Assembly: GCA_030649735.1 (NCBI GenBank)
Contig: JAUSFL010000023.1
Location: forward strand, 15,698-79,697
DNA: 64,000 nucleotides
DNA from: Candidatus Iainarchaeum sp.
GTDB lineage: Archaea; Iainarchaeota; Iainarchaeia; Iainarchaeales; UBA10191
Direction of reading: 5' to 3'
Translations under genes and position numbers: made by a program
Notes under the pieces: generated by a model
What the model was told of the DNA's origin: nothing
The model's database searches: none
Seen by the model: the letters and a program-made list of their open reading frames with translations, nothing else
In this document: one piece after another, positions 1-18,912 of the stretch
Layout: the number at the start of each line of letters is the position of its first letter
How positions within the stretch are numbered: position 1 is the first letter of the stretch

Positions 1-1163
1 TTGTTTTGTCGCATGCGCATTTGGACCATATTGGCTTTGTTCCTGCTTTAATCAAGCATGGCTTTAAGGGAAAAATTTACTGCACTAAGCCGACAAGGGA
101 TTTGATGCACGTTTTATTGGCTGACGCTTTTGCTATTTCCAAAGAGCGCGGCCAAGAGCTTTATTCAGCGAAAGACATTGAGAAGACAATGCGGCTTGTT
201 GAGGTTGTCCCTTTTGAAAAATCAGTGAAAATTTCAAGGAATTTTTCCTTCAAGCTTTTTTCTTCTGGCCATATTATTGGCTCTGCAATGATTTTGATGA
301 ATTGCGCTGGCAAGCATTTGCTTTACACTGGGGATTTTAACACTCGGGAATCAAATCTTTTGGAAGGCTGTAAGATTCCTAAGGAGAAAGTTGATTTTTT
401 AATTATGGAAGCGACTTATGGCTCCAAGAAAGACATGCTGCCTTCATTGAAGTCTGTGAGCAAGGAATTTGCTGACGCTGTGAACGGGACTTTTCTTTTG
501 GGCGGCAAGGTTTTAGTGCCTGTTTTTGCTGTTGGAAGAGGGCAGGAGTTGATGTTTGTTTTGGAGAATTACATTCGCTCTGGTTATCTTCCTTGCGACA
601 CTGTTGTTTTTGTTGATGGAATGATTAATTCTGTGAACAAGATTTGCAGGCATAATGTCGTTTTTTTGAGGCCTGAAATTCCTGCAAGGATTTTGAATTC
701 TGATGATGATCCTTTCAAGAGCCCTTTTTTCAAGATTCCGGAATCTAAAAGCAAGTCTGAAGTTTACGCTGCGGAGAACGCGGTTATTTTGGCCACTAGT
801 GGAATGCTTACTGGCGGGCCTTCTGTTTCATACTTCAAAAGGCTTGCGAGGAACGAGCGCAATTTGATTGCTTTGGTTGGCTTTCAAGGAAAGGACAGTT
901 TGGGCAGGGAATTATTGAATGGGGCCAAAGAAGTCAAAATAAAGGAAAGCAGGGTTCCTGTCAAGGCAATGGTTAGAAAATTCGGCTTTTCAGGCCATGC
1001 GGATTTTTTGGGGCTGTTTGAGTTTGTCCGAAAGATTGCGCCTTCAAAGATTTTCATTGTTCACGGCGAGCATTCAAAGCAGTTGGAGTTTGTTGCCGTG
1101 GTTAAGAATAAATTGAAGAAAGAGGCTATTGTTCCAAAGGCTTTGGAAGTGTTTGACTTATGA
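1..1163 (+). CDS. beta-CASP / metallo-beta-lactamase family ribonuclease (aCPSF/RNase J-like), C-terminal part; 5' end lies outside the window
   Basis: Reading frame is open to the window edge. An HxHxDH metallo-beta-lactamase motif (HAHLDHIG) sits at the start. About 380 aa of beta-CASP-like sequence follow, ending with an FSGHAD-type motif. Confidence 0.6.
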   Translation, partial: VLSHAHLDHIGFVPALIKHGFKGKIYCTKPTRDLMHVLLADAFAISKERGQELYSAKDIEKTMRLVEVVPFEKSVKISRNFSFKLFSSGHIIGSAMILMNCAGKHLLYTGDFNTRESNLLEGCKIPKEKVDFLIMEATYGSKKDMLPSLKSVSKEFADAVNGTFLLGGKVLVPVFAVGRGQELMFVLENYIRSGYLPCDTVVFVDGMINSVNKICRHNVVFLRPEIPARILNSDDDPFKSPFFKIPESKSKSEVYAAENAVILATSGMLTGGPSVSYFKRLARNERNLIALVGFQGKDSLGRELLNGAKEVKIKESRVPVKAMVRKFGFSGHADFLGLFEFVRKIAPSKIFIVHGEHSKQLEFVAVVKNKLKKEAIVPKALEVFDL

Positions 1164-1570
1164 GTGAGAAGAAAGCCCAGGTTGCCGCGGAGTACCTTAT
1201 AATAAGCGGTTTTTTGCTGTTGGCAGTGATTGTTTTTTTCATTTACTCGATTTCAAGCTATAATGATTCTGTTTCTTTCACCAAGGCAAAGAATGTCGTT
1301 GATTCATTGTCTAATACTGCATCGCAGCTTTCCGGCCTTGGGAATGGCAGTTCTTTGGTTGTTGACTTGGAGTTTCCTGAAAACATCCAGTCTTTTCAGG
1401 TTTCTGGAAAGACATTCAGGCTTTTTTTGACTACTGGCTCAGGAACGCAAGAGTATTATGCGGAGTCAAGGCTTGACTTGAATTCTGCTGTTCTTCCATT
1501 GACTTCTGGATTTCATTCAATCAAGGTTTCGCGCTTGAACAACAAGGTTGACTTTGTAGAGGTAAAATGA
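1160..1570 (+). CDS. class III signal peptide (archaeal type IV pilin-like) protein; minor pilin or pseudopilin candidate
   Basis: N-terminus is MSEKKAQVAAEYLIISGFLLLAVIVFF: a basic stretch, an AQxxAAEY Flp/archaeal prepilin-like motif, then a TM helix. Start overlaps the upstream stop (ATGA). Confidence 0.55.
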   Translation: MSEKKAQVAAEYLIISGFLLLAVIVFFIYSISSYNDSVSFTKAKNVVDSLSNTASQLSGLGNGSSLVVDLEFPENIQSFQVSGKTFRLFLTTGSGTQEYYAESRLDLNSAVLPLTSGFHSIKVSRLNNKVDFVEVK

Positions 1571-1945
1571 ATGATTTCTGGCTTTAGGGCGCAGATTTCC
1601 ACAGAGGCTTTGTTCGCTGTTGTCATTATCTTGATCATTGGGCTTGTAATAAGCGTTTTTGCTTCTTTGAAAAGCTCTGAGTCTTCAGGCTTGTTCACTG
1701 CTTTTTCTGAAAAGGCGGAGTGCGAAAAGGTTTCTTCAATAATTTATTCCCTTTCCAATTCCAGCGCAAAGCCAAGCGTTGTTTTTGACTTGGACTTGAA
1801 TGCTTCGGTTCTGAACGGCTTTGTTTATGTCGGGGAGTATTATTGCGATTTTTTGGGTTCTGCTTCTGACGCGAATATTTCTTCAGGCACTTGGATTGCT
1901 TCAAAGAATTCTCAAGGGGTTGTTGTTTTTGCCAAAGTCGCTTGA
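1571..1945 (+). CDS. class III signal peptide (type IV pilin-like) protein
   Basis: N-terminus is MISGFRAQISTEALFAVVIILIIGLVI: the G-F-R-A-Q-x-S-x-E motif typical of prepilins, followed by a TM helix. Tightly packed after the previous gene. Confidence 0.55.
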   Translation: MISGFRAQISTEALFAVVIILIIGLVISVFASLKSSESSGLFTAFSEKAECEKVSSIIYSLSNSSAKPSVVFDLDLNASVLNGFVYVGEYYCDFLGSASDANISSGTWIASKNSQGVVVFAKVA

Positions 1946-2432
1946 CTCTAAAGGCCAGTCGATTTTTCTTGACCTGGCTTTTGGGGTTTTTTTGTTCTTG
2001 CTGTTGTTTGCCTTCATTTACTCGCAGTGGCAAACTAATATTTCTGTGGCAAGCCAGGAGTCTGATTTTGAAGAGCTTTCTTCAAGGGCCTTGATGTCTT
2101 GCGATTCTTTGGTTTCTTCGGCCGGAACTCCTGCAAACTGGTTCTTGCTTTCAAGCGCGGATGACATTAACACAATTGGAATCGCAAGGAAAAAGCGTTC
2201 TCTTGACGACAGGAAGCTCTCAAGGTTTTTGTCATTGGATTATAATGTTTCCCAGCAAAAGCTGAAGCTTTCCGGCTTTGACTTTTACTTTCACTTGTTC
2301 AATTCCAATGGAATCGATTTCAATTATGGCGTTTCTCCAGACTCAAACAAGGTTGTTGTTTCCTTGAGGAGAATTGTCGACTATCAAGGGGTGGAAAGCA
2401 TTGTCGATTGCTCAGTCTACAGGCAAGAATAG
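1920..2432 (+). CDS. pilin-like protein with class III signal peptide; start codon uncertain (TTG)
   Basis: The ORF-track frame 1821..2432 overlaps the previous gene by ~120 nt. In-frame TTG codons at 1920, 1923 and 1929 give LPKSLDSKGQSIFLDLAFGVFLFLLLFAFIY, i.e. a KGQS prepilin-like motif plus a TM helix. Confidence 0.4.
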   Translation: MLFLPKSLDSKGQSIFLDLAFGVFLFLLLFAFIYSQWQTNISVASQESDFEELSSRALMSCDSLVSSAGTPANWFLLSSADDINTIGIARKKRSLDDRKLSRFLSLDYNVSQQKLKLSGFDFYFHLFNSNGIDFNYGVSPDSNKVVVSLRRIVDYQGVESIVDCSVYRQE

Positions 2433-4812
2433 CCTGAAAGGGTTTGTTTTCAGCATTGACGCTGTTTTGGCCGTGATTCTAGTAAGCTCTGCAATTCTTG
2501 CAACGCAAACAAGCTTTTTCCAGTATTCCCATTCGTCAATCAATGTTCTTGCAAAGTCTGCTGATGACGTTTTTTCGACTTTGCAGGACACTGGGTTTTT
2601 GTTTCAGGAAACAGACAGGAATTCACTGGACAATGCCGCGCTTTCCTTTTACTTCAAGGCGAAGGGGCTTTTGCCTTCAAACTCTGGCCTTCAAGTCAGG
2701 CTTTCACAATATAATTTGAATAAGGAATCCTGCAGGCAATTCAAGGATTTTAACAACTGTTTTGCTTTGGCTGGAGAAGTCATTGTCGGTGATGCAATTG
2801 ACAGCAATGAAATTGCTTTTGGAAAGCGGTTGATTGTTAAAAAGCAAAGCCCCGGAGACTGCAATATTTCCGCGCAGTTTTCAGACTTGCCGCTAAATCA
2901 GTTTCCAAAAGAGTTTGGCAGTGCTTTTTTTGACACTGCTTTTTTTGCTTCTGGCGGCGATTTGAACATCGGAGTTGCCGCAAGCTATAACAGCCTTCCT
3001 TTAATGTCTGGAAGTTCAATACAGTGTGATGAGAACATTCATGTTGACTTGAATGCTTATTTTCCAACCACTGGAAGGCCTCCAATAAACATGATTTTTG
3101 GATCTGACAAGAGCTTGAGCATGGGGGAATGCACCATTGCCAAAGGAATTGTTTTGGACTCAAATAAAGGAACAACCTCTTCAACTTTCGTCAAAATTCA
3201 CGAGTTTTCTTTAAGCGACAATAATGCTTTTGATGTCTTGCTTGAATGGTCTGCCACTTGTTCTTCAAACTGTCCTGAAATGTACGTTGTCGCGCCTAAT
3301 GGCACTACAAAGTATGGCCTTGGTTTTCCTTCAACTACTGACTTGAATGTCAAAACTTGCAATTCTGGAGACTCTTTGAATTCCAAGGCTTATTATTTGG
3401 GCAAGTCCACTTTTGACTATTTGGCAGTTAACTCTAATGTCGGAAATTCTAAGTCCGGAACTTGGCAGGTTTGGGCAAGAAAGTCCGGAAGCGCGATTGA
3501 TTACAACTTGACTGTCAAAAGAATAAGGAATGATTATTTTTCCTCAAGCACTCTGACTGTTTTGCCTTGGAATAATCCAATTTCAAAGATTGAACTGGCC
3601 CAGGTTTTTATTGCAAGGTTTAATGAAAATGCTTTGTGGGATCCTGTTGCTGACGAGTATGCTTATGCTGAAATTGGCACTGACAAGAAAAGTGGCGGTA
3701 ATGGTTCTTCAATACAACCTAGCAGTGGCTTAAGGCCTATTGGAGACCAGGCCTTCAAAAGCCAGTTGAAGAATCTTTCCCCAGTAAGCGTTGATTCTTC
3801 GGCTTATGGGTTTGCAATGTCTGGCGACGACATGATGAATGATATTCTTGCAGACCAGCCGTCTGCCGAAGTCCGGGCAGAAATTATTTTTGGAGATGCA
3901 AATAGTTATGGAACTCCAAATGCGGTCGCTGCCGCGCAGGATGCAAAGGATAGGAACATTGTTGTTTTCACTGTTGGCTTTGGAAGAGACCATAATTTCA
4001 CTGACTTGAAAATGATTTCCGCAATTACTGGTGGGACTTTTTACAATGCTTCTGACGAGAATGCTTTGCTTTCAATTTTTGATACTATTGCGCAGAGGAT
4101 TTTTGCGCTTTCGGGCTACGCCTACGGAATTGGAATTCCTGACTTGAATATTACAATTCCAGTCCTTGCTGGCAGTGAAATTAACACTCCAGCAAGCAAT
4201 TTTCAGGGAACTTTTGAGCTTTCTTCAAGTTCTTTGCGATTTTTCATCACAGACATTAATATTTTGAGTCCTTGGTATGGATCTTATAATATTTCGTTCC
4301 CCTGCACAATGTCTTGCGCTTCGGAAAAAAAATACCTTCCGGAATTTGGAACAAATTACTCTTACACAGACACTAATGGAAATTATTACGCGAATAATTT
4401 TGACATAAACAAGTACATTGACGTTAATTTTTTGTATAGGGACTTAAGGCTTTCTTTTATGAATGCCGAATTGTTTGATATTAACCATTTGACTGTCACT
4501 GCACAGCTTTCTAATGTCGGCGACTTGAACACTTTAAGTTATCCTTCAGGAATGACTGACTTGAACTTTTCAGTAAATGGCTCTTTTGCCGGAACCAAGA
4601 CAATTCAAGGGCTTTGTGGGCATTTGAATCCTTTATGCGGCCTTTGGTTTGACTTAAACAGCGTGGAATTGTTTCGGGAGGGTGAAATTGAGGTTTCTAT
4701 TGACGCAAATAAGGCGCGTGATTGTCCTTTGGGGAATTCTGTAAAAATAATCTGCAATTCTCAATTAATCACCCAATTTTATGTTGTTGAGTTTGGAGTG
4801 TGGGAAAAATGA
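2374..4812 (+). CDS. large pilin-like protein with class III signal peptide and a vWA (von Willebrand factor A) domain; TadG-like pseudopilin / tip adhesin candidate
   Basis: N-terminus KGFVFSIDAVLAVILVSSAILA is prepilin-like. A MIDAS DxSxS motif (MIFGSDKSLSM) lies near nt 3115. The vWA C-terminal signature NIVVFTVGFG...ITGGTFYNASDENALLSIFDTIAQRI lies near nt 3960-4090. An alternative TTG start is at 2401. Confidence 0.6.
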   Translation: MSTIKGWKALSIAQSTGKNSLKGFVFSIDAVLAVILVSSAILATQTSFFQYSHSSINVLAKSADDVFSTLQDTGFLFQETDRNSLDNAALSFYFKAKGLLPSNSGLQVRLSQYNLNKESCRQFKDFNNCFALAGEVIVGDAIDSNEIAFGKRLIVKKQSPGDCNISAQFSDLPLNQFPKEFGSAFFDTAFFASGGDLNIGVAASYNSLPLMSGSSIQCDENIHVDLNAYFPTTGRPPINMIFGSDKSLSMGECTIAKGIVLDSNKGTTSSTFVKIHEFSLSDNNAFDVLLEWSATCSSNCPEMYVVAPNGTTKYGLGFPSTTDLNVKTCNSGDSLNSKAYYLGKSTFDYLAVNSNVGNSKSGTWQVWARKSGSAIDYNLTVKRIRNDYFSSSTLTVLPWNNPISKIELAQVFIARFNENALWDPVADEYAYAEIGTDKKSGGNGSSIQPSSGLRPIGDQAFKSQLKNLSPVSVDSSAYGFAMSGDDMMNDILADQPSAEVRAEIIFGDANSYGTPNAVAAAQDAKDRNIVVFTVGFGRDHNFTDLKMISAITGGTFYNASDENALLSIFDTIAQRIFALSGYAYGIGIPDLNITIPVLAGSEINTPASNFQGTFELSSSSLRFFITDINILSPWYGSYNISFPCTMSCASEKKYLPEFGTNYSYTDTNGNYYANNFDINKYIDVNFLYRDLRLSFMNAELFDINHLTVTAQLSNVGDLNTLSYPSGMTDLNFSVNGSFAGTKTIQGLCGHLNPLCGLWFDLNSVELFREGEIEVSIDANKARDCPLGNSVKIICNSQLITQFYVVEFGVWEK

Positions 4813-5765
4813 GCCTGCGAATTTCCCGGAAGGGAATTTTGTTCACTTTCATGTCCTTGCTTTTGATTCTTTCACTGCTTTCATTGGTTGATTCTTTGAA
4901 TTCGCAAAGGTCAAGCCTTAAGGCAAACGCGGCTTTAGTTTATTCCCTGAATTCCACTAGTTCTCGCTTTGACAACGTATATTCCGACTTTGTTTTTTTG
5001 GACAAGGACGCCAATGCAAGGCTTGTTGACCAAAGGAACCTGCCTTTTTCATACTCTATGGATTATAATTCTTTGAGCATTGTTCAAGAGCTTCCTTTGA
5101 GGATTAGTGTTTGGAACAATTACTTTGACCTTGTAAACGCTTATGTTATTTTTTTGAAGGACTCTAACACCGGGTTTTCAAGCGAATTTGCAGTTGATGC
5201 AAACACTGTGAAAAACGCGATTTGGGGCGGCAGCGTTCAAGACTTGAATTTCGTGCTTTTGCCCCAGTGCCTTTTTTATGACGTGAATTCTTCGCTTTAC
5301 TCGGCCGGGTTTTATTCAGCATCTTTTTCTGGCTGTTCTTTTGACTCTTCAAAAATCGGCAAGTATTCGGTAATTGTTTCCTTGAAAAGCCCTGCTGTTG
5401 AAGACTATAATTCAATAACTTACAATATTCCCGGCTTTTCAAATCCGGCAAATCCGGCTTTTGAATTCCTGCTTTTGGACAATAACTGCGCCAAATGCTC
5501 TCTTTCCCAGGCAAGCAAGAGCATTATTGGCTATTTTGACCCGACGCAAAGCGGCTGGATTACTGTAAAGTGCGTTGGGGCTTTGTGCCATTCCAAAGAC
5601 ATTAATATTTTCGTCAGTTCCGGCTTGCAGGCATTTCATTCTGGAGAGCGCGTGGACGTGAATTTCACTGTAAAATTCAAGAATTTCATTGATTCCTTTT
5701 ATTTCAAGGACTTTAATGCGTCAGTGACAAACAATGATTTTAACATTGTCTATTCGAATGCCTAA
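4809..5765 (+). CDS. pilin-like secreted/membrane protein (class III signal peptide-like N-terminus)
   Basis: MSLRISRKGILFTFMSLLLILSLLSLV: an RKG motif followed by a hydrophobic helix. ATGA overlap with the upstream gene. Seen only within the pilus locus. Confidence 0.45.
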   Translation: MSLRISRKGILFTFMSLLLILSLLSLVDSLNSQRSSLKANAALVYSLNSTSSRFDNVYSDFVFLDKDANARLVDQRNLPFSYSMDYNSLSIVQELPLRISVWNNYFDLVNAYVIFLKDSNTGFSSEFAVDANTVKNAIWGGSVQDLNFVLLPQCLFYDVNSSLYSAGFYSASFSGCSFDSSKIGKYSVIVSLKSPAVEDYNSITYNIPGFSNPANPAFEFLLLDNNCAKCSLSQASKSIIGYFDPTQSGWITVKCVGALCHSKDINIFVSSGLQAFHSGERVDVNFTVKFKNFIDSFYFKDFNASVTNNDFNIVYSNA

Positions 5766-5811: not shown

Positions 5812-7668
5812 ATGGGTTTTTTCCAAAGCATAATGGAGCTTTTTGGCCTGAGAAAGAAGAAAATTCTAGATTCTTCCAGCAAGGCTGCAATCCCTGTCCA
5901 GCCTGTCCCAAGGCTTGCTGAAAAAGCCCTGCCAAAAAATTCCTTGCTTGAGGAAAAGTTTGATTCGCCTTCTTCAAGTTCTTCAAGGAAAAAGTTCGCT
6001 TTCGGGAAAAACAAGCCTGTTTTGAAGCGGGCAAAGCAAAAGTCGGTTAATCCCTTGCAGTTTGAGGTAGAGCAGATTTTGACTGCCGCGCTTTCATTGA
6101 AAAAAAAGATTGAAGCCAGGAAAAGGAAAAAGCATTCTAAATCAAAGAAAAAAAAGCCAAAAAAGCTTTCAAAAAAGCAGCAAAGGCGGCTTTTAATCAA
6201 GGAATTGAAGGAAACTTTGACTCCATTGTCTCCCGAAGTGCTTAATAAAATGAAAAACAAGGTTTCCCGGGCAAATCCTTTGACTGCCGTTGAAATCCAG
6301 CGCTTGAGGTTTAATTTGAACAGCGGCCTTGCTGCCAAAAACCCCGAAGAGGCCGAAATCCGCACTGAAGAGCTTGACCGCATTAGAAAAACCCTTTTGG
6401 AAAAGCCCGCGGCAAGCATTACTGAAAAAGAATTGCGCACTGAAGAATTGGAAAGAATCCGCAAGTCTCTTGCAGAGCCTGGAGGAAATGGCCGCGACCG
6501 GCCTTTTCAATCAGCAGAAACACAGTCTCAAGCCTCGCAAAATAACTTTCAAGCCATTCCTAAATCTCAAAGTCTTCAACAGCAGGATTCAATGCCTTCT
6601 GTTCGGCAGCAGAATTCACAGCCGCAATTTTCCGGAATTCAAGGAACTGTTGTCCAAGTGCCTGAAGGCGCGAGCGTTTTCATAGGAAGCCAGCCGCCGC
6701 AAGTCCAGCAGGCTGTTCAGCAAAAAAAGTCTGAAGAGTCCCAATTAAGCATTGATGATGACATTTCAGCGACTGAAAGGCTGCTTAAGGCCTTGGAGCA
6801 GGATTATTTGAAGCGCAGGATTTCAGAGCAAGAGTACAGGCAAAGGGTTTTGGACCTGAACCAAAGATTGCGCGAATTGAAAATCAAGAAGAAAATTCAG
6901 GGAGAAAAGCCTGTTGAAATAAAGCTTCCTGATTCTGAAAAACCCCTGGAAGATCCGGAACAAAAAATTCCAGCGCCCGCGCCAGCCTCAAAGCCTTTAA
7001 GATCAAAATTTCAGTTTTCCAGGCCTTCAGTGCATTATGCTGTTCCGCAAGGCAATGATTCCTTGACTCCGGAAATGCAGAAGTTTTTGCAGGAACGGCT
7101 TGGCAAAAGCGATGACGCAAAGCTTTCAGAGCTTGAAGCGAACGTGCAAAAGCTAATGAAAAAATACAATCTTTCAGAATCAGAGGCAGAGGAAAAAATA
7201 GCGAAAATTGACAGCCCGAAGGTCTTGCAAAGCTTTGACAAGCTTGTTGACTTGATTGAGCTTGAGCAGCGCACCCAGAAATTAATGCAGGAGCAATTGC
7301 AGATTGCAAAAGACCGTTCTCCAAAGCAGGAGGAAAAGTCCGAGTTTGGAAGCGGGTTTGAGGCAGGGGTTCCAAAAAAGAAAATTGAAGAAGTGAAGGC
7401 AATTGTTGTTGAATTGCAAAAGCACCGCATTGTGACAGACTTTGACAAGCTTTTGGAGCTGGTTCAAAGTAAGGGAAAAGTGAGTGAAAGCGACGCATTT
7501 AAGGAATTGAAGATTTCCAAGGACAAATTAAAGGATTGCATTAATGTTTTGGAGCAGAACAATCTTGTGAGGGTTGAGTTTCCGCCGATTGGAACGTCAG
7601 TCATTTTTGACGTTAATTACATCCCTCCAGTGAAGCTATCCAAGCAGGAAAAGAATGAAAAAAAGTGA
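5812..7668 (+). CDS. Lys/Glu-rich coiled-coil, low-complexity protein of unknown function within the pilus locus
   Basis: Long K-rich tracts (KRKKHSKSKKKKPKKLSKKQQRR). An internal ~25-aa duplication (EIRTEELDRIRKTL / ELRTEELERIRKSL). A possible winged-helix-like C-terminal ~90 aa. Immediately upstream of the ATPase. Confidence 0.5.
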   Translation: MGFFQSIMELFGLRKKKILDSSSKAAIPVQPVPRLAEKALPKNSLLEEKFDSPSSSSSRKKFAFGKNKPVLKRAKQKSVNPLQFEVEQILTAALSLKKKIEARKRKKHSKSKKKKPKKLSKKQQRRLLIKELKETLTPLSPEVLNKMKNKVSRANPLTAVEIQRLRFNLNSGLAAKNPEEAEIRTEELDRIRKTLLEKPAASITEKELRTEELERIRKSLAEPGGNGRDRPFQSAETQSQASQNNFQAIPKSQSLQQQDSMPSVRQQNSQPQFSGIQGTVVQVPEGASVFIGSQPPQVQQAVQQKKSEESQLSIDDDISATERLLKALEQDYLKRRISEQEYRQRVLDLNQRLRELKIKKKIQGEKPVEIKLPDSEKPLEDPEQKIPAPAPASKPLRSKFQFSRPSVHYAVPQGNDSLTPEMQKFLQERLGKSDDAKLSELEANVQKLMKKYNLSESEAEEKIAKIDSPKVLQSFDKLVDLIELEQRTQKLMQEQLQIAKDRSPKQEEKSEFGSGFEAGVPKKKIEEVKAIVVELQKHRIVTDFDKLLELVQSKGKVSESDAFKELKISKDKLKDCINVLEQNNLVRVEFPPIGTSVIFDVNYIPPVKLSKQEKNEKK

Positions 7669-7675: not shown

Positions 7676-9208
7676 ATGTCGGCAAAGATTTTGGAAAATT
7701 ATGACGTGAAGGCAGACAATGTCGCCGTTGAAGTGCAGGTTGTCGAGGCAGAGAACGAGTTTGTAAGGCAGTACTTGCTCAGCATTCCAGAATACGGCCT
7801 TGGGACAAAGGCGCTTTTGGAAAACTTGAAAGCGTCAATAATAACCGATGCGGGCATCAATGCGGAGAAAATGCTCAACCCAAAATTCATGAAAGAATTA
7901 AAGGACAGGTTTGCAGAAAAAGCCGGCAAATTATTGCAGAGGGAATTGCCTGACTCAAAGCCTGAAATAAGGAACACTTTGATTGGGCTTTTGATCCATG
8001 AAATGCTTGGCTTGGGAAAAATAGAGTTTTTGCTTGCTGACGGGAATTTGGAAGAAATTGTCATTAATTCTGCAGCAGAGCCAATTTGGGTTTATCACAA
8101 GAAGTTCGGCTGGCTGAAATCCAATGTTTTTGTCGAGCCAGAGGCTGAAATCCAGAATTTTGCAAACATCATTGCAAGAAGGGTTGGAAAGCAAATAACC
8201 ACTTTGAATCCATTGCTTGACGCGCACTTGATTACTGGAGACCGCGCAAACGCGACTTTATTCCCGATTTCCACGCGCGGAAACACAATCACAATAAGGC
8301 GCTTTAGGAGAGACCCTTGGACTGTTACAGACATTATTGACAACAAGACGGCGTCTGCGGAATTAATGTCTTTGGTGTGGCTTGCAATACAGTATGAAAT
8401 GAACATTTTGATTTCCGGCGGAACTGGCTCTGGAAAAACCTCAATGCTGAACGTATGCATGCCTTTCATTGAAGCAAACAATCGAATAATATCTATTGAG
8501 GACACCAGGGAAATCCAATTGCCCGAGTTTTTGCACTGGGTTCCTTTGACAACGCGCGAGCCGAATTCTGAAGGCAAGGGAGAAATCTCAATGCTTGACT
8601 TGCTTGTCAATAGCTTGAGAATGCGGCCTGACAGGATAATTGTCGGAGAAGTCAGGAGGCAAAGGGAAGCCGAAGTGATGTTTGAGGCAATGCACACAGG
8701 CCATTCAGTGTACACTACAGTGCACGCCAACACTGCCGATGAAACAATCCGCCGCTTGGTCAGCCCCCCAATAAGCATTCCGATAACAATGCTTGATTCA
8801 GTGCATTTGAACCTTGTAATGTTCAGGAACAGGCGCGTTGGCGCAAGAAGGGTTTTGCAGCTTGCCGAATACATCAGTGAAAAGCGCTCTGAAAATGAAG
8901 AGCGCGTGCGCGCGAACATTTTGTACCGCTGGAAGCCAGCCTCTGACGAAATTTCAAAGCATTCTGAAAGCATTCGATTTTATGATGAGCTTGCAATGCA
9001 CACTGGCTTCACGCCTGATGAAATGCAGGCTGACTTGAAGCAAAAGAAGGAAATCCTCGAATGGCTTGTGAAAAACAAGATTCGCGACATTTCAAGCGTT
9101 GGAAGAGTGATTGCCGAATATTATCTGGACACTTCAAGCATTACTTCGCTTGTTGAAAAAAACAAGGTTCCTTCATGGTTTGTTGAGAAGAGGGCGGTTG
9201 TAGAGTGA
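7676..9208 (+). CDS. type IV filament assembly ATPase, FlaI/TadA/VirB11 (GspE) family
   Basis: Walker A GGTGSGKTS, Asp/Walker B box RPDRIIVGEVR, His box HTGH. About 510 aa, matching archaeal secretion-superfamily ATPases. Confidence 0.9.
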   Translation: MSAKILENYDVKADNVAVEVQVVEAENEFVRQYLLSIPEYGLGTKALLENLKASIITDAGINAEKMLNPKFMKELKDRFAEKAGKLLQRELPDSKPEIRNTLIGLLIHEMLGLGKIEFLLADGNLEEIVINSAAEPIWVYHKKFGWLKSNVFVEPEAEIQNFANIIARRVGKQITTLNPLLDAHLITGDRANATLFPISTRGNTITIRRFRRDPWTVTDIIDNKTASAELMSLVWLAIQYEMNILISGGTGSGKTSMLNVCMPFIEANNRIISIEDTREIQLPEFLHWVPLTTREPNSEGKGEISMLDLLVNSLRMRPDRIIVGEVRRQREAEVMFEAMHTGHSVYTTVHANTADETIRRLVSPPISIPITMLDSVHLNLVMFRNRRVGARRVLQLAEYISEKRSENEERVRANILYRWKPASDEISKHSESIRFYDELAMHTGFTPDEMQADLKQKKEILEWLVKNKIRDISSVGRVIAEYYLDTSSITSLVEKNKVPSWFVEKRAVVE

Positions 9209-10113
9209 AAGCCAAGCCAAAGGCAAAAAAGAAGATTTCAATTCCTTTCGCGCCTTTTCCACTGCCTGTCTTGAAGAACATTGCGCAAAATTTTTTAGGA
9301 ATCGGGGAAATGATAGCGCATGCCTTTCCATACCTTGAGCTTCAGCTAAAGCAGGCTGAAATTGAATTGAAGAAGGAAGAGTACGGCGCGATAATGTTCT
9401 TGATGTTTGTTTTTTACTTTTTGCTTTTTGGGCTGCTTGTTTACTTTGTGGCATTAAGGCTTGCGCCAAAGCAGGCGTTGCCAATGGCTTTCACTATTGG
9501 CGGAGTTTTAGGGCTTTTGATTCTTGTTCAATTAAGCGCTTATCCAGCAATCCTTGTCAAAAAGAAAGTTCGCGACATTGAAAGGAACTTGGTTTTTGCC
9601 TTGCGCACAATGCTCATTGAAATAAAGTCCGGGGTTTCCTTGTTTGATACATTGAATGTCATTGCGCAAGGCGATTATGGGATTTTGAGCGATGAATTCA
9701 AGCAGGCAATTGATGAGATAGAGACTGGCACTGCGGAAGAGGACGCTTTGCAGAAGATTGCAATGCAAAATCCTTCATTGTTTTTCAGGAAGGCATTGTG
9801 GCAATTGGTTAATGGAATGAAGGCCGGCGCTGATGTCGCGACTGTAATGACAGAGCTTGTCAATTCAATTGGAAAAGAGCAGGTCATTGAAATAAACCGT
9901 TACGGCGGCTCGCTACGACTGCTTTCATTGATTTACATGATGATGGGGGTCATTATTCCTTCAATGGGCTTGACTTTGCTCATTGTGCTGTCTTCTTTTC
10001 CGCAAATCAAGATTGTGGATGAAATGTTTTGGGGACTGCTTGCATTGGTTGTTTTAATGCAGTTCATGTTTTTGGGGTTTATGAAAAGCAAGAGGCCGAA
10101 TCTTATCGGGTGA
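9205..10113 (+). CDS. TadB/FlaJ-like polytopic membrane platform protein (T2SS-F domain)
   Basis: T2SS-F-like segment LIEIKSGVSLFDTLNVIAQ...ALWQLVNGMKAGADVATVMTELVNSIGKEQ flanked by TM helices. ATGA-type overlap with the ATPase gene. Confidence 0.8.
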   Translation: MKAKPKAKKKISIPFAPFPLPVLKNIAQNFLGIGEMIAHAFPYLELQLKQAEIELKKEEYGAIMFLMFVFYFLLFGLLVYFVALRLAPKQALPMAFTIGGVLGLLILVQLSAYPAILVKKKVRDIERNLVFALRTMLIEIKSGVSLFDTLNVIAQGDYGILSDEFKQAIDEIETGTAEEDALQKIAMQNPSLFFRKALWQLVNGMKAGADVATVMTELVNSIGKEQVIEINRYGGSLRLLSLIYMMMGVIIPSMGLTLLIVLSSFPQIKIVDEMFWGLLALVVLMQFMFLGFMKSKRPNLIG

Positions 10114-10120: not shown

Positions 10121-11104
10121 ATGGTTTACAGCAGGATTTCAGCGTTTATTCCTTCAGGCATCAGGGAAGCCTTTGCGAAAGAAATAGATTATTTAGGAAT
10201 TAATATCGAGTCCGGAAAGTTTGTCGGATTCATTTTTTCATTCGGGCTTGCCTTAAGCCTTGGCATTGCATTAAATCTTCAATTGTTTTACCAAATTCCT
10301 TTCCTGCTTTCATTCGCGCTTTTTGCGAGCCTTTTCATTGGCGGAATTTATGTCTGGCTTAGCATTACTGCGGAAAGCAAGGGAAAGTTTGTCGAAAAAA
10401 TCTTGCCCGATGCCTTGCAGTTGATTGCAAGCAACATTCGCTCTGGCTTGACGACTGAAAGGGCATTATTGGTTTCTGCAAGGCCTGAATTCGGGCCTTT
10501 GGAGGAAGAGTTGAGAAAAGCATCCAAGCGCATTCTTACAGGAACTCCAATACAGGAGGCATTGTCAGACATTCCAAAGCGCATTAATTCCAAGACTGTC
10601 GAGAAAACAATTTGGCTTGTGAATAAGGGAGTTTCTTCAGGCGGCCAGATTGCGGATGTCTTGACACAGCTTTCTGACGACTTGCGGGAGCAGAATTCAT
10701 TGCAGGATGAAATTCGCGCGAACATCAGCATTTATGTGATGCTCATTTTCTTTTCCGCAGCAATTGGGTCTCCAATAATGCTTGGAATTTCCTCTTTTAT
10801 AGTGCAGATTCTGCACAAGCAGATTTCAGGCATTCAGACTGTTGACACTTCAAGGATTTCTGCGCATTCCAAAAGCCCGTTTTCTGGAATTCCAAAATCA
10901 AGCATTGACCCTGACTTTGTGCTGGTTTTTGCAGAATTGTCCTTGCTTGTCACGACGATTTTTGCCTCAATGACAATGGGAATAATCAATACTGGCAATG
11001 AAAAGAACGGCTTGAAGTACTTTCCTGCCTTGCTGATTGTTTCTTTCGGGATTTTCCTGGCAATACGGTTTGTGCTTTTCACAATGTTCAAGGCAATGGT
11101 CTAG
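10121..11104 (+). CDS. TadC/FlaJ-like polytopic membrane platform protein (second T2SS-F domain protein)
   Basis: T2SS-F-like segment LQLIASNIRSGLTTERALLVSA...WLVNKGVSSGGQIADVLTQLSDDLREQ with multiple TM helices. Together with the previous gene it resembles a split FlaJ or a TadB+TadC pair. Confidence 0.8.
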   Translation: MVYSRISAFIPSGIREAFAKEIDYLGINIESGKFVGFIFSFGLALSLGIALNLQLFYQIPFLLSFALFASLFIGGIYVWLSITAESKGKFVEKILPDALQLIASNIRSGLTTERALLVSARPEFGPLEEELRKASKRILTGTPIQEALSDIPKRINSKTVEKTIWLVNKGVSSGGQIADVLTQLSDDLREQNSLQDEIRANISIYVMLIFFSAAIGSPIMLGISSFIVQILHKQISGIQTVDTSRISAHSKSPFSGIPKSSIDPDFVLVFAELSLLVTTIFASMTMGIINTGNEKNGLKYFPALLIVSFGIFLAIRFVLFTMFKAMV

Positions 11105-11199: not shown

Positions 11200-11613
11200 T
11201 TAAACAGTTCCTGCAACGCAAGTTGTTGATTCAGTGTGTGAAATTCCGTTGGCAGTGTATGAGATGCTCATTACATACGTTGACCCTGCCGCTATTGGAC
11301 TTGTGAAGACAGCGTTAGTGTCTGCGCTTCTTGATAAGCTAGTGCTTCCCATTAATCCCGCGCCTAAGTCTCCGCTTGCGTTAAGGTCGCTCATTGTGCC
11401 TGAAGAGCCGTTTTGGATTGCTAGGCTGATTCCTGTTGCTTGAATTGCGTAATCCTTCAACAGCAGTCTTCCGCCGAACTGCGTGCAGTTTGCTGGAGTG
11501 TTGAAAACACCGAAAGCGAACAAGGCTGCGACAACAATTACTATTACTACCAAGGCCCACCCGTAAGTCATGAGGTATTCCAAGGCTGATTGTCCCTTAC
11601 TGTTCAATTGCAT
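11200..11613 (-). CDS. Flp-like / archaeal type IV major pilin precursor (class III signal peptide)
   Basis: From the internal ATG at 11613: MQLNSKGQSALEYLMTYGWALVVIVIVVAALFA, a classic KGQ-SALEY prepilin motif plus TM helix. C-terminal half is Ser/Thr/Gly/Asn-rich. GGAGGA sits immediately upstream. The upstream part of the long ORF (to 11715) is treated as non-coding. Confidence 0.8.
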   Translation of the reverse strand: MQLNSKGQSALEYLMTYGWALVVIVIVVAALFAFGVFNTPANCTQFGGRLLLKDYAIQATGISLAIQNGSSGTMSDLNASGDLGAGLMGSTSLSRSADTNAVFTSPIAAGSTYVMSISYTANGISHTESTTCVAGTV

Positions 11614-11724: not shown

Positions 11725-12477
11725 ATGTTTGTAATTATGGCTGCAGCTTCAAAAAAGCAGGAATTGGCCGGCGCCTCTTTAGATTCCGTAAAGCGAATTC
11801 AAACAGGAATTCAAGGCTTTGATGAATTGGTTGAGGGTGGAATTCCCGCAAACTCATTGGTTGTCTTGACTGGCTCTTGCGGCACTGGAAAAAGCACTTT
11901 TGCAATGAATTTTCTGGTGCAGGGCGCGTTGAATGGCGAGCCAGGATTGTACATTAGCCTGGAAGAGAATGTTGACGACAACATTCAAGAAATGACTTTG
12001 TTTGGCTGGCCAATCAAGAAATTGATTGAAGAAAAAAAGCTTGCCATAACACAGCCTGAACTGTATGATTTTGACAAGCTTGTAACCCACATTGAGGATT
12101 TTGTCTCAAAATTGAAGGCAAAGCGGATCGTAATTGACTCTTCCTCATTGATTGGCTTGTATTTTAAGGACGCTTTCAAGGTAAGAAAGGCAATGGTTGA
12201 CCTTGAGACAATGCTCAAGCGATTGAATTGCACTGCGATGGTGATTAATGAAGTCAAGGAAGGCGATGCCGGGCTTTCAACTTACGGCGTTGAAGAATTC
12301 ATTGCCGACGGCGTCATTGTATTGTACTGCCAGAAGAAGGAAAACCTGTACACTAGGGCAATAAACATCAGGAAAATGCGTTCCACAAACCATTCAATGA
12401 AAATCCACCCAATCCACATTAAAAGGCCCGGGGGCATTACGGTTTTTGCTTCTGAGGAAGTTTTCACTGAATTTTAG
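11725..12477 (+). CDS. FlaH/KaiC-like RecA-superfamily ATPase (single RecA domain)
   Basis: IQGFDELVEGGIPANSLVVLTGSCGTGKSTF (Walker A), ...GVEEFIADGVIVL..., ...IRKMRSTNHS... match the FlaH/KaiC/aRadC pattern. About 250 aa. Confidence 0.8.
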   Translation: MFVIMAAASKKQELAGASLDSVKRIQTGIQGFDELVEGGIPANSLVVLTGSCGTGKSTFAMNFLVQGALNGEPGLYISLEENVDDNIQEMTLFGWPIKKLIEEKKLAITQPELYDFDKLVTHIEDFVSKLKAKRIVIDSSSLIGLYFKDAFKVRKAMVDLETMLKRLNCTAMVINEVKEGDAGLSTYGVEEFIADGVIVLYCQKKENLYTRAINIRKMRSTNHSMKIHPIHIKRPGGITVFASEEVFTEF

Positions 12478-12523
12478 AATTGGTTTTTATACTTGTTTTT
12501 TTCTAAGTCTTAGTTGATAATGA

Positions 12524-13228
12524 ATGGTTACAATGGAATTTGAGAGGACAAAGTCCGGAATTCCCGGCTTTGATGAATTATTGTATGGGGGCATTCCGAA
12601 AGGAAACCTTGTAGTGCTTTCAGGAGACCCCGGCTCTGGAAAGACTGTTTTTTGCTTCATGTTTTTGTATGAGGGCGTTTTGCGCTTTGACGAGCCCGGA
12701 ATTTACGTCAGCCTGGAAGAAAGCGCTGACGATCTTTTGAGCAATTCATTGGAGTTTGGAATGGACCTGGCCCCGTTGATCAAGGCAAACAAGCTGAAAA
12801 TAATAACAATCGAGCTTTATGACTTTGACAAGCTGAAAAGCTCGATTGAGGATGCCGTGCAAAGCATTGGCGCAAAGCGCGTTGTCGTTGATCCAGGCGT
12901 TGTTTTCAGGCTTTTCTTTGAGAAAGAGCTTGACGCCAGAAAGCGCATTCTTTCGCTTGGAAAAATGCTCAAGCATTTGGGCTGCACCAGCGTCGTGACA
13001 AACGAGCTTTCGCTGGATGATAGCAAGAGCCTTTTTGGATTGGAAGAGTATGTTGCTGACGGCGTGGTTTTAATGTATCACACCAAGTCCCAAAATCGCT
13101 TCATTCGAAGCATTGCCGTAGTGAAAATGCGCGGCACAAAGATTTCGGAAAACCTGCATCCTTTGCAGATTGCAAAGAATGGATTGAAGGTTTTGTCAAC
13201 GCAGGAATTGTTTGAGGATGTTGAGTAA
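12524..13228 (+). CDS. FlaH/KaiC-like RecA-superfamily ATPase (second paralog)
   Basis: IPGFDELLYGGIPKGNLVVLSGDPGSGKTVF (Walker A), GLEEYVADGVVLMY, VVKMRGTKIS. About 234 aa. Confidence 0.8.
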   Translation: MVTMEFERTKSGIPGFDELLYGGIPKGNLVVLSGDPGSGKTVFCFMFLYEGVLRFDEPGIYVSLEESADDLLSNSLEFGMDLAPLIKANKLKIITIELYDFDKLKSSIEDAVQSIGAKRVVVDPGVVFRLFFEKELDARKRILSLGKMLKHLGCTSVVTNELSLDDSKSLFGLEEYVADGVVLMYHTKSQNRFIRSIAVVKMRGTKISENLHPLQIAKNGLKVLSTQELFEDVE

Positions 13229-13841
13229 GATGCCTTTAAAGCCTTCTGGTTTTTCTGATTTTGACTTTGAGCAATTGCTTAGCCCGAACCGCGCGATAAA
13301 CTCAAAGATTTCCTTGGCTTTGGATGGCATTCCCAATGATTTTGTGGTTTTGTTCATTGTTGACTTGAAGAATTATGCGGGAACTGTTGTTGAATTATTG
13401 CGTGTGCTTCAATTGGAAAATAATACTGGGGTTTACTTGACAATAAACAAGCCGGTTGAGGATTTAATCCGCACTTTCAAAGCCCAAAGGCTTGACACTG
13501 AAAAGATTTTTTTCATTGACGCAATAAGCGCTCTTTCTGAAAGGAAGACTTTGGAGTCCCAAAACATTATTTTGCTTGACAGTCCCACGGACTTGATTGA
13601 AATAAACAATATTGTTTCGAAAAAAATCGCGTTGGAAGAGAGCAAGTTTGTTGTTTTTGACTCATTGAGCACTTTGCTTTTGTACAATAAGCCAATGGCT
13701 GTTGAGAAATTCCTGCATGTTTTGGTCGGCAAAATGCGCGGCTCCAGGGTCAAGGGCTTTTTGATTACTGTAAAAAGCTCTGAGCATGCCGGATTGATTG
13801 AAACAATCAGCCAGTTTGTCGACAAGATTGTTGAAATTTAA
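13212..13841 (+). CDS. KaiC/FlaH-like paralog with a degenerate (lost) P-loop
   Basis: Same overall pattern (GFSDFDFEQLL...DGIPNDFVVLFIV..., VGKMRGSRV) but no GxxGxGK[ST] motif. Its start overlaps the preceding paralog. Confidence 0.55.
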   Translation: MRMLSKMPLKPSGFSDFDFEQLLSPNRAINSKISLALDGIPNDFVVLFIVDLKNYAGTVVELLRVLQLENNTGVYLTINKPVEDLIRTFKAQRLDTEKIFFIDAISALSERKTLESQNIILLDSPTDLIEINNIVSKKIALEESKFVVFDSLSTLLLYNKPMAVEKFLHVLVGKMRGSRVKGFLITVKSSEHAGLIETISQFVDKIVEI

Positions 13842-15196
13842 GGCTGGCTTTTCACTTCAATTTCCTGCCCCAGGATTTCTTTGGCTTTTTCCTGCAGTTT
13901 GATGATTTCTTCCCTTATTTTCATTTTTTGAGTTTCCTTGATTGTCTTTACTGCCGAAAGTTCGTTGGTTTTTTGGACGGCTTCCCTTTCAATGCTTTCT
14001 TCCCTTGCTTTAAGGCCGTTTATTTGCCTGAACAGCGTGCTTTTTTCCAATGCTTCGTGGACTTTGGGCAATTCCTTGTCTATTTCATTAAGCCGCCAGA
14101 AAAAAGTGCTGAAGAAATCGAAATTTTTCAATTCTTCAATTGCCTGGATTTTCCTGTTTTTTTCTTTCTCGTCCTTGAATGAGATTTTCCCTTTATTTAT
14201 CGCGTTTTCCATTTCTTGCAGGCATTGCTTTAGGATTTCTCCCTTTGGGTCCTGCCTTAATGCGTTAAAGCTGTCTTCCAAGTATGATGAAAGCATTCTT
14301 TCCTGCTCTTTTTCCAGAATCCATTCCTTGTTTGACGACAGGGTTTGCATTTTTCTCAGTTGCTTTTCCAAAGGCATAAGTAAATTTGCGGCTTTTTCCC
14401 GAAGGTCTTTTTTTTCGCCCAGCAGTTTTTCTTTTGATTTCTCGTTTTTTTCAAATTCCTGGAATGCTTCGCCATTTTTCAGCCCGTCCGCGTCTTTCAA
14501 AACCCCGCTTTTTTCAGCGTCAAGCTCCTGGATTTCTTTTTCCCTGTCCTTGATTTCATTCTCTTTTTCCGCAACTTGCCTTTCTTTTCCTCGAATGCCG
14601 CCAATTATTTCCAGGACTCTTTGCATTTGCGCTGTTTTGGAGCTTTTTGAAAGCTCGAATAATTCAATCAATTGCTTTTCCAATTCTTCAATTGTTTTTC
14701 CAAGCTCGTTCATTTCTTTTTTCGCCAAAAGCCCGGTGTACGCGATGTTTTTCCTGAAGGACATTATGTCTTGCTGGAATTCCCTCGCGGAATTTTGGCA
14801 GTACGCAAAGTTTTGCTCAAACGATTTTCTTTCAGGCGGCCTTGTTTTTTCCAGAAGAGTCTGCATTTTTCCTGAAAAGCTTTCCTTGCTTGACTGGACG
14901 ATTTTCCTGAAGTATTTGTTTTCGCCTTCCTGCTCAAAATCCAGGCCTTCAATGTTTTTTGTGCTGTCTTCAGCCGAGTGGATTGTTTCCTTTATTTTTG
15001 CGAATTTTGAAAGGCATTCCTTGCCGAATTCTTTCTTTTCCTGCTCGAAGATTTTTTCAACTTCGGCCTTTAGCTCTTCAACGCCAATGGCTCTCTTGCC
15101 TTCTGGCATTTGCTCTTTCTTTCCGAAAATCTTGTCCAAAAAACCCATAACGACTGGAATTATGGCTTGAAACTTCTTTAAAACCAATTCTTTCAA
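13838..15196 (-). CDS. Lys/Glu-rich coiled-coil protein, unknown function
   Basis: 452-aa ORF with long heptad-like K/E-rich segments. The antisense frame is low-complexity. Tail-to-tail with the degenerate KaiC-like gene. Confidence 0.6.
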   Translation of the reverse strand: MKELVLKKFQAIIPVVMGFLDKIFGKKEQMPEGKRAIGVEELKAEVEKIFEQEKKEFGKECLSKFAKIKETIHSAEDSTKNIEGLDFEQEGENKYFRKIVQSSKESFSGKMQTLLEKTRPPERKSFEQNFAYCQNSAREFQQDIMSFRKNIAYTGLLAKKEMNELGKTIEELEKQLIELFELSKSSKTAQMQRVLEIIGGIRGKERQVAEKENEIKDREKEIQELDAEKSGVLKDADGLKNGEAFQEFEKNEKSKEKLLGEKKDLREKAANLLMPLEKQLRKMQTLSSNKEWILEKEQERMLSSYLEDSFNALRQDPKGEILKQCLQEMENAINKGKISFKDEKEKNRKIQAIEELKNFDFFSTFFWRLNEIDKELPKVHEALEKSTLFRQINGLKAREESIEREAVQKTNELSAVKTIKETQKMKIREEIIKLQEKAKEILGQEIEVKSQP

Positions 15197-15207: not shown

Positions 15208-16092
15208 ATGGCTCCAAGCGTTAGATTGTCACCTTCTGGAATTTCCGCATTCACGCAATGCCCGCGAAAATTCTATTTTCGCCATATTGAAAGGCTTCCT
15301 GAACCGGCGTCTGTCTTTCAGGTCCGCGGCAAAATAATCCACAAGGTTTTTGAGCTTTTTTTCCAGACAATTGACATTTCAAAAATCGACCAGAAAAAGC
15401 ACTGGCATGGCATTTGGGATGATTTTCGGGCAGTTTGCTTTGCATTGCTGGATGAGGAATGGTCAAAGATTGGAAAGCCTGGCGCGGGCTATGATGATAT
15501 TTTTGAAAGCGCCGAACAGAAAAAAGGGCTTTTTGAAGAAACGCGGGAGTTTTTGGATTTTTTTTCCGCAAAAATGGCCTATTCGTTCTATAATAAATTG
15601 CACGAGCTTGAAAAGGACGAGTGGTTTGACGCGAATTTGAAAAAGCACTTTTACCCTAAAGGCCGCGAGTTCAAAATAGAGCTTGTTGAAGAAAACATCA
15701 TTGGCTTCATTGACAAGACATTGAATCTTTATGGTGATGGGGTCGCGATTGTCGATTACAAGACTTCAAAATCTTCATTGCCGCATTTCATTTCAGAAGC
15801 CGACTTGAAGCAGTGCAAGGTTTATGCCTGGCTTTGGAACAAAAAATTCAATGAAATTCCCCGCTTTGTCTCGATTTTTTACGTGAGGGACGGCGAGAGC
15901 GTTTATTACCCGATTTCTGAAAAAGACCTTAAGGAAGTCGATGATTCTATTGAGGAAATTCGCTCTAAAGGCCGTGAGATTTCAAACTTTCGCAAAAAGC
16001 CTTCAAGGCTTTGCGAGTACTGCGCTTTTTTTCCAAAATGCTTTGAAAACAAGGAAGAGTTTGAAGCAGTTCTGCAAAAACTCAAAAATTGA
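15208..16092 (+). CDS. Cas4/RecB-family PD-(D/E)XK nuclease with a 4-Cys Fe-S cluster motif (stand-alone; no CRISPR nearby)
   Basis: N-terminal Cys (FTQCPRKFYF); D...IVDYKTSK (D/EYK catalytic motif); QCKVYAWL (QhxxY); C-terminal CEYCAFFPKC (CX2CX5C). Confidence 0.8.
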   Translation: MAPSVRLSPSGISAFTQCPRKFYFRHIERLPEPASVFQVRGKIIHKVFELFFQTIDISKIDQKKHWHGIWDDFRAVCFALLDEEWSKIGKPGAGYDDIFESAEQKKGLFEETREFLDFFSAKMAYSFYNKLHELEKDEWFDANLKKHFYPKGREFKIELVEENIIGFIDKTLNLYGDGVAIVDYKTSKSSLPHFISEADLKQCKVYAWLWNKKFNEIPRFVSIFYVRDGESVYYPISEKDLKEVDDSIEEIRSKGREISNFRKKPSRLCEYCAFFPKCFENKEEFEAVLQKLKN

Positions 16093-18871: not shown

Positions 18872-18912
18872 TAAGAATCTTTGAGTAAGTTTTAGGAAAA
18901 TTGGTGAAATAA

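Follow-up and report, generated by a model that had tools for sequence, protein, structure and literature searches.

Archaeal type IV pilus systems show a strong association with KaiC-family ATPases, among them arCOG01171, arCOG01174 and arCOG01175, and these have been proposed to regulate them; arCOG01175 is described as an "inactivated" RecA-superfamily ATPase (Makarova, Koonin & Albers 2016, PMC4858521). In Archaeoglobus, inactivated KaiC-family genes of about 220-235 amino acids (aa) adjoin the FlaI-type ATPase and TadC genes of clade-2 pili (PMC4858521, Suppl. Table S4). In the archaellum, ArlH, which is reported to be KaiC C2-like, docks on the ATPase ArlI depending on phosphorylation state, and the ArlH hexamer on ArlI modulates its partner through nucleotide binding and autophosphorylation (bioRxiv 10.1101/2021.03.19.436134). 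CirA of Haloferax volcanii, a KaiC-like product of the arl cluster, regulates both the expression and the activity of the filament encoded beside it; it acts as a repressor of motility genes and needs its Walker A motif (PMC10983859). The subject here is a trio of KaiC-like genes, ORF1, ORF2 and ORF3, located at the end of a cluster of type IV pilus genes, not of the archaellum kind, in the DPANN archaeon Candidatus Iainarchaeum sp. (contig JAUSFL010000023.1). The stretch of DNA analyzed, referred to as the window, is 64,000 nucleotides (nt) long, and all coordinates are those of the whole window; handles such as L001 denote loci of relatives and handles such as P0155 representatives of a protein family. 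With moderate confidence we propose that the trio is a KaiC-family regulatory module of the pilus, in which ORF3 acts as a non-catalytic adaptor.

Seen against the described systems the trio is fairly ordinary, as it fits into a previously catalogued class of KaiC-like regulators associated with pili. It overturns nothing, since the association of KaiC-family proteins with pili, inactivated copies included, had already been reported by comparative genomics. Like the inactivated genes of Archaeoglobus, ORF3 encodes a small, dead KaiC-like protein beside a pilus ATPase and TadC, a likeness drawn by annotation and gene positions only. Unlike them, it comes from a DPANN lineage barely covered by the 2016 census, and the dead copy has as partners one or two active KaiCs, resembling the C1 domain of clock KaiC, to which it is translationally coupled. 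What is new is modest: the anatomy of DUF7504, the family of ORF3, which has lost the P-loop, the catalytic Glu pair and the finger strands; its obligate-looking pairing with C1-like KaiCs; the recurrence of the trio; and the repertoire of domains fused to the family. No mention of DUF7504 was found in the searchable literature.

The three genes are adjacent and co-directional on the + strand, exactly at the coordinates where the first-pass annotation had noted three tandem RecA-superfamily paralogs, two of them with an intact Walker A. ORF1 (11725..12477, 250 aa) and ORF2 (12524..13228, 234 aa) are both single-domain proteins spanning positions 1-230 of the 231 in profile PF06745 (E 2e-63, 214 bits, and E 8.8e-59, 199 bits, respectively; gathering cut-off 26.6 bits), and they share 43% identity (E 3e-66). 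The Walker A of ORF1 reads GSCGTGKST (nt 11872-11898), and its SLEEN, IVIDSS and RKMRST motifs are intact as well. In ORF2 the corresponding elements are GDPGSGKTV (nt 12623-12649), the catalytic E65/E66, the Walker B D123 and the true Lys/Arg-finger motif KMRGT (nt 13124-13138). The KMRG[ST] motif that had been ascribed to both active copies is thus found in ORF2 only, ORF1 reading KMRST. Across ORF2 and its relatives, in two alignments, G34, G37, G39, K40, E65, D123, R195 and K201 never vary, and the finger arginine R203 hardly does. The catalytic set of the KaiC family (Walker A, Glu, Walker B Asp and Lys/Arg finger) is complete in ORF1 and ORF2 and incomplete in ORF3; by their intact motifs, the first two are predicted to be catalytically competent.

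Among curated models, the top matches of ORF1 and ORF2 are the N-terminal half of clock KaiC and archaeal KaiC groups, at about 146-175 bits, each under its equivalog cut-off. Scores against the clock KaiC models themselves (NF006799 / TIGR02655) reach 173-175 bits versus a cut-off of 408 and 124 bits versus one of 546. The ArlH/FlaH models (NF052589, NF004723, NF006320) score ORF1 at 46.5 and ORF2 at 45.4 bits against a cut-off of 215, and ORF3 has no match to these NCBIfam models. Scores for the recombinase families are equally distant from their cut-offs, with 26-30 bits versus 172 for RadB (TIGR02237), 18-30 versus 259 for RadA (NF003301) and 28-40 versus 403 for RadA/Sms. In the PDB, ORF1 matches KaiC at 157-208 bits, PH0186 at 168, PH0284 at 123 and SSO2452 (aRadC) at 93, and FlaH is not among its sequence matches at E<=1e-5. 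The AlphaFold2 (AF2) model of ORF2 (mean predicted local distance difference test score, pLDDT, 89.1) has as its best Foldseek match the KaiC C1 domain 4tlb (template-modelling score, TM, 0.88/0.93; 33% identity); over isolated KaiC C1 structures the TM is 0.88-0.93, with a root-mean-square deviation of about 1.8 A and 32-34% identity, and the 50 best Foldseek matches do not include FlaH. Because of the curated-model scores, the PDB matches and the superposition of ORF2 on KaiC C1, both proteins are best assigned as stand-alone C1-like KaiC ATPases and not as FlaH, RadB or clock KaiC.

Like the C1 domain of cyanobacterial KaiC, ORF2 has a Walker A, a Glu-Glu (EE) pair, a Walker B and a K-x-R finger. 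Unlike clock KaiC, in which C1 and C2 stand in tandem in a protein of about 520 aa, ORF1 and ORF2 are single domains of 234-250 aa, and neither KaiA nor KaiB was found among the scanned window gene products; nothing points to a clock. Functionally, ORF1 and ORF2 are best compared with ArlH, which likewise is a single-domain protein of KaiC/RecA fold and whose gene accompanies those of a FlaI-type ATPase and a FlaJ/TadC platform. The pilus locus in the window differs from the archaellum operon, however, in carrying no ArlF/G/X or ArlCDE genes and in an ATPase that scores under the FlaI cut-off; and ArlH, unlike ORF3, keeps its Walker A. CirA shares with the KaiCs of the trio the position of its gene beside type-IV-filament genes, whereas it acts on the haloarchaeal archaellum and has no described dead paralog as a partner.

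ORF3 (13218..13841, + strand, 207 aa) belongs to the DUF7504 family (PF24336, 34 bits; cut-off 27). It also matches PF06745 at 30.8 bits, over profile positions 47-171 only, and shows weak similarity to DUF835. Three starts are possible, ATG 13218, ATG 13230 and TTG 13212, giving 203-209 aa; an identical 207-aa database protein starts at ATG 13218, and one of the two ATG codons is likely to be the true start rather than TTG 13212. In either case ORF3 begins next to or overlapping the stop codon of ORF2 (13226-13228), so that the two genes are tightly coupled. Its 25 homologs are 167-218 aa long and down to 28% identical, with D97, D144, S145, T148, L149, Y152, N153 and D198 invariant, and all 24 aligned family members match PF24336 (24/24). 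A scan with the narrower family alignment found a relative of ORF3 encoded in 233 species-level archaeal genomes, and a DUF7504 profile search of 1.84 billion cluster representatives returned 3816 matches at E<=1e-3, 2451 at E<=1e-10 and 810 at E<=1e-30. The missing P-loop that the first-pass annotation had noted in ORF3 proved to be a property of the family: a Walker A is found in 0/100 DUF7504 open reading frames (ORFs) from 80 genome loci, compared to 86/90 of the neighboring KaiCs, and in 0/146 of the top library representatives.

The AF2 model of ORF3 is confident (pLDDT 87.2, predicted TM 0.83), and its best Foldseek match is PH0284 (TM 0.72), followed by FlaH (4yds) and then KaiC. Aligned to the KaiC alignment by hhalign (probability 89%, E 2e-6), ORF3 residues 30-202 fall on ORF2 residues 20-183. 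At the P-loop position ORF3 reads DLKNYAGT instead of GDPGSGKT, and at the catalytic Glu pair TINKP instead of SLEES, with NK for EE; the Walker-B-like strand is kept as FDSLSTLLLYN. The protein ends with the strand matching ADGVVL of ORF2 and is without the last ~50 residues of the KaiC domain. The C-terminal strands of the ORF2 model (E192-202, E212-217 and E220-223), the first of which bears KMRGT, have no counterpart in it. From alignment and model, DUF7504 is best described as a P-loop-less, truncated derivative of KaiC with a KaiC/RecA core fold. That ORF3 is a catalytically dead paralog beside active ones, as had been suggested, is therefore borne out, with the EE pair lost in addition and the state conserved in a family.

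One part of the earlier description of ORF3 did not stand. The sequence does contain the string VGKMRGSRV (nt 13725-13751), which had been read as a sign that the fold pattern was retained, but its GKMRG core (13728..13742, + strand) lies in the helix after Walker B. Profile-profile and hidden Markov model (HMM) alignments place it opposite LGKMLKHLGC of ORF2 and LVARLKRMG of KaiC, and only 1/100 family members has a K[MLIV]R[GSTA][STA] string. Since it is placed after Walker B and is unconserved in the family, the string is, as judged from these alignments, a chance look-alike and not a homolog of the Lys/Arg-finger motif. The idea that ORF3 keeps a trans-acting Lys/Arg finger was rejected on the basis of hhalign, the HMM alignment to KaiC/PH0284 and the order of secondary-structure elements.

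The linkage of the trio to pilus genes extends well beyond the window. The layout T2SSE-T2SSF-T2SSF-pilin(-)-KaiC (one or two copies)-DUF7504, in which T2SSE is the pilus ATPase and T2SSF the TadC/FlaJ-like platform, is found in L001/L002, L008/L009 and L011; L010 has it too within the limits of its contig, which opens with the tail of the second TadC gene. In L006/L007 the layout is similar with extra genes inserted, L012 and L013 have convergent or operon-internal versions of the module, and in L013 and L042 the DUF7504 gene lies within the pilus operon, directly after TadC. Among gene-called relatives the gap between KaiC and DUF7504 is -1 to +31 nt. Surveying genomic context in related genomes had been proposed as a check; in our census of 80 species-level DPANN loci, a KaiC lies within 2 kb of DUF7504 in 59/80 loci, with two KaiCs in 23, and T2SSE/T2SSF within 10 kb in 45/80. 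Where both flanks extend 5 kb or more (37 loci), KaiC is present in 31, pilus genes in 25, both in 23 and neither in 4. As a rough estimate, chance would be expected to bring DUF7504 into such proximity in a few percent of cases, assuming a genome of ~1 Mb with one to three pilus loci. Because the parts of the module co-occur in many distinct gene orders and orientations, in Iainarchaeota, Micrarchaeota, Woesearchaeota and Nanoarchaeota, the linkage of DUF7504, KaiC and pilus genes argues for selection and not inherited synteny. The first-pass suggestion that the trio may belong to the filament machinery as FlaH-like parts is thus supported with respect to the pilus, but not with respect to FlaH, from which the scores (46 bits versus 215) set it apart.

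Some loci carry additional members of these families. Six in Iainarchaeota (L035, L045, L052, L082, L083 and L085) have a second DUF7504 gene by the pair of ORF2-type KaiC and DUF7504, along with a longer KaiC of ~375-415 aa whose ~160-aa N-terminal extension has no Pfam match. Three of them (L082, L083 and L085) encode a protein of 675-800 aa that contains DUF7504 as an internal domain; in the long "DUF7504" ORFs of L082, L085 and L067 no informative additional domain was found.

The two active copies have separate histories. In relatives, the KaiC that stands directly before the DUF7504 gene is orthologous to ORF2 (84% identity in L008, 64% in L001 and 63% in L006), whereas ORF1 is only 43-47% identical to the same upstream KaiCs. 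ORF1 instead has its own DPANN-wide orthologous group, with 135 proteins at E<=1e-40 and 50-79% identity, members of which are found in the same trio, or by DUF7504 and type IV pilus genes, in L010-L013. In a neighbor-joining tree of the KaiCs encoded beside DUF7504, a tight ORF2-type clade from Iainarchaeota and Micrarchaeota is accompanied by a smaller ORF1-type clade; Woesearchaeota and Nanoarchaeota sequences form two further clades, between which nearly every tandem pair is split, one member in each. Given these separate pairs of clades, the set of two active copies and one dead copy recurs in independent DPANN lineages. The analogous trio of Woesearchaeota and Nanoarchaeota (L048, L059, L071, L072, L078, L084 and L087) has another layout, with two tandem KaiC genes, DUF7504 on the opposite strand and then TadC-TadC-ATPase, and seems to have arisen or been retained independently.

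Domain fusions provide a further indication of what DUF7504 may do. The family is fused to an adenylate/guanylate cyclase domain in P0265 (E 4e-21), to V4R and a KaiB-like domain in P0167 (KaiB 23.7 bits, under the cut-off of 27), to WD40 repeats in P0240 and to DUF835 in P0227, while P0155 and P0250 carry a second, degenerate DUF7504 copy in tandem. This suggests that DUF7504 is a general docking module of archaeal signaling proteins, and the fusion partners make up a signal-transduction repertoire, in keeping with docking or adapting as the function of the degenerate domain.

Upstream of the trio, the window encodes a T2SSE, two T2SSF proteins, a protein with a Class_IIIsignal match and a pilin-like protein with a vWA domain, which together identify a complete type IV pilus locus. 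The FlaI/PilB-type pilus assembly ATPase (7676..9208, + strand, 510 aa) matches PF00437 at E 1.4e-37 and scores 278 bits against the NCBIfam FlaI model, under its cut-off of 550. It is followed on the same strand by two TadC/FlaJ-like membrane platform proteins (9205..10113, PF00482 E 1.9e-14, and 10121..11104, PF00482 E 6.9e-17). Divergent from ORF1 lies the gene for a candidate major pilin of 137 aa (11200..11613, - strand), the N-terminus of which, MQLNSKGQ/SALEYLMTYGWALVVIVIVVAALFAF, reads by inspection as MQLNSKGQSALEYL... followed by a hydrophobic helix, resembling a class III signal peptide with Glu at +5. A small minus-strand gene occupies the same position in L001, L008 and L011. Five pilin-like or minor-pilin genes, recognized in the ORF list by their N-terminal hydrophobic helices, lie further upstream (1160..5765, + strand). 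One of these (1160-1570, +) matches Class_IIIsignal (PF04021, E 8e-4), and another (2374-4812, +) encodes the 812-aa vWA protein (PF00092, E 2.2e-6), with a hydrophobic helix at its N-terminus. This protein is a possible pilus tip adhesin, and L008 has a 1231-aa VWA protein at the matching position. Directly upstream of the ATPase gene is that of a 618-aa Lys/Glu/Gln-rich, low-complexity protein (5812..7668, + strand), which had no match in a Pfam scan; L008 has a 544-aa gene, also without a Pfam match, in the same slot, and from its position the protein may belong to the module. The genes of the examined part of the window include no prepilin peptidase, none of the FlaF/G/X/CDE families was matched among the neighbors in the pilus locus, and the rest of the window holds no additional copy of KaiC, DUF7504, the pilus ATPase, TadC or the pilin genes.

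In the proposed regulatory module, ORF1 and ORF2 would, to judge from their family, form ATP-dependent hexamers. ORF3, a domain derived from KaiC but shortened at its C-terminus and without catalytic function, would be produced together with ORF2. Serving as an adaptor or docking partner, it might relay the nucleotide-bound or phosphorylated state of the KaiCs, by analogy with ArlH and ArlI and with KaiC and its second components. The target could be the motor formed by the FlaI/PilB-like ATPase and TadC, or pilin expression, and pilus assembly would be gated in consequence. The adaptor and gating functions are proposed because ArlH hexamerizes on ArlI by phosphorylation state and because CirA represses motility genes. 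A more specific version, which we regard as tentative and rather improbable, is a minimal three-part DPANN pilus switch: two C1-like KaiCs and an obligate, P-loop-less DUF7504 partner that docks or stacks on the ring and couples its ATPase state to the FlaI-like motor. If true, this would be a split, half-inactivated version of a two-tier KaiC-like arrangement, an architecture that differs from that of ArlH and for which no type IV filament offers a precedent so far, serving pili that mediate host or surface attachment. More generally, type IV pili are probably central to the attachment of DPANN archaea, which are small and depend on hosts, to partners or surfaces, and the control of archaeal pili is poorly understood. 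The locus is a compact example of a recurrent module comprising a pilus ATPase, two TadC proteins, a pilin, one or two active KaiCs and one dead KaiC-like protein. DUF7504, uncharacterized and with thousands of members, is accordingly a candidate "second component" of KaiC-type signaling at archaeal pili.

Several points weigh against the regulatory module. The oligomeric state, the physical contacts among ORF1, ORF2, ORF3 and the pilus ATPase, and the regulatory output are steps that we infer. ORF2 is KaiC-C1-like and ArlH is reported to be C2-like, and the analogy is for that reason functional and not orthologous. With ORF2 and ORF3 concatenated as a query, no fusion of an ORF2-type KaiC to DUF7504 was found among the best 120 matches. 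The candidate major pilin had no significant match in an HMM search. Lastly, the DUF7504 family is not exclusively pilus-linked, since neither a pilus ATPase nor a TadC gene lies within 10 kb at 12/37 of the loci with ample flanks and some relatives stand alone, such as that in L004, which lies beside an AsnC-type regulator and TFIIB.

Two other readings of the trio are each considerably less probable than the regulatory module. In the first, ORF3 would be a non-catalytic regulatory protomer within a RecA/KaiC hetero-hexamer with ORF1 and/or ORF2, comparable to the alpha subunits of F1-ATPase or to Rad51 paralogs. In the Rad51-paralog complexes of eukaryotes, active members are helped by degenerate ones. 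The modeled KaiC/RecA core fold of ORF3, its retained Walker-B strand with the invariant DSxSTLLxYN segment, its tight coupling to and co-transcription with ORF2, and the trios of two active copies plus one dead copy in two independent DPANN lineages could all be accommodated by a mixed ring. However, a canonical ring of this type is less likely because ORF3 misses both inter-subunit active-site elements: without the P-loop and the C-terminal finger strands it can neither host nor complete such a site, and the finger motif it was supposed to retain is a false homology. The fusions to sensor and effector domains, moreover, fit a docking or adaptor domain at least equally well. We therefore regard the mixed ring as unlikely and prefer to see ORF3 as an adaptor.

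It is about as doubtful that the trio is a generic KaiC signaling hub, for instance in stress or timing, whose proximity to pilus genes is a matter of inherited gene order. Archaeal KaiC-like ATPases are numerous and have been proposed as general hubs (cited in PMC10983859). DUF7504 relatives also occur away from pilus genes, the cyclase, WD40 and V4R fusions point to broad signaling, and the genes downstream of the module in relatives, for the coiled-coil protein described below, PPDK, Thy1 and HMG-CoA reductase, are partly syntenic too. In contrast to what gene order alone would predict, the linkage to T2SSE/T2SSF survives rearrangement across at least four DPANN phyla, and in L013 and L042 DUF7504 has its place inside the pilus operon. 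These observations favor a pilus-linked regulatory module over a hub of general function.

The genes just downstream of the trio had raised the alternative that it acts in DNA repair together with an adjacent Cas4-like nuclease. ORF3 is convergent, with overlapping stop codons, with the gene of a 452-aa coiled-coil protein (13838..15196, - strand) for which Pfam, NCBIfam and PDB sequence searches gave no match. A homolog is found convergent with and downstream of DUF7504 in 23/80 genome loci, and the protein may be an unrecognized scaffold of the module or merely syntenic. Only 11 bp from this divergent gene starts that of a stand-alone Cas4-like PD-(D/E)XK nuclease (15208-16092, + strand; PF12705 E 6.5e-25) with a C-terminal CxxC...C cluster. 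Mediators of repair or recombination like RadB, aRadC or Rad55-Rad57, working with this nuclease and possibly on DNA taken up through the pilus, would agree with the RecA-superfamily membership of the trio and with the recurrence of the nuclease as a neighbor in L008, L009 and L011 (in L006, a shorter Cas4-like gene is present). RadB, aRadC (SSO2452) and Rad55-Rad57 do share the RecA-superfamily fold, but the trio scores far under the cut-offs of these families, the 93 bits to SSO2452 are much weaker than the 157-208 bits to KaiC, and the genomic context is a pilus and not repair. An iterated HMM search found a window-like nuclease in only 4/93 loci (L008/L009, L011 and L025), and the nuclease is thus kept only in the closest relatives. 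It also belongs to another transcription unit, past an oppositely oriented gene, and neither a CRISPR array nor a tandem repeat was found in the window. Taken together, a repair function is very unlikely.

Finally, although ORF3 has lost all its catalytic motifs and has a weakly predicted start that overlaps ORF2, the chance that it is a pseudogene in decay or an overlapping ORF called in error, the frameshifted copy against which the first-pass annotation had cautioned, is negligible, because its relatives in 233 species-level genomes form a widely conserved family (810 representatives at E<=1e-30) of uniform, full-length proteins (~180-220 aa) with invariant positions and a confident fold (pLDDT 87).

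A few minor features of the window and its relatives may be added. GC skew is positive in 30/32 of the 2-kb bins and nearly all long ORFs of the window are on the + strand; ARAGORN predicted zero tRNA genes in the 64 kb. The ATPase next to the module is ~1000 aa long in L012, L018, L022, L025, L028, L036 and L060. In L012 (13015-16140) this T2SSE contains an intein carrying a LAGLIDADG endonuclease, and inteins recur in DPANN pilus ATPases. A gene for a beta-CASP/metallo-beta-lactamase RNase (6-1163) is cut by the start of the window. On the other flank are housekeeping genes for a GltD-like Fe-S flavoprotein, HMG-CoA reductase and HMG-CoA synthase (16198-19959), the order of which is kept in L008.

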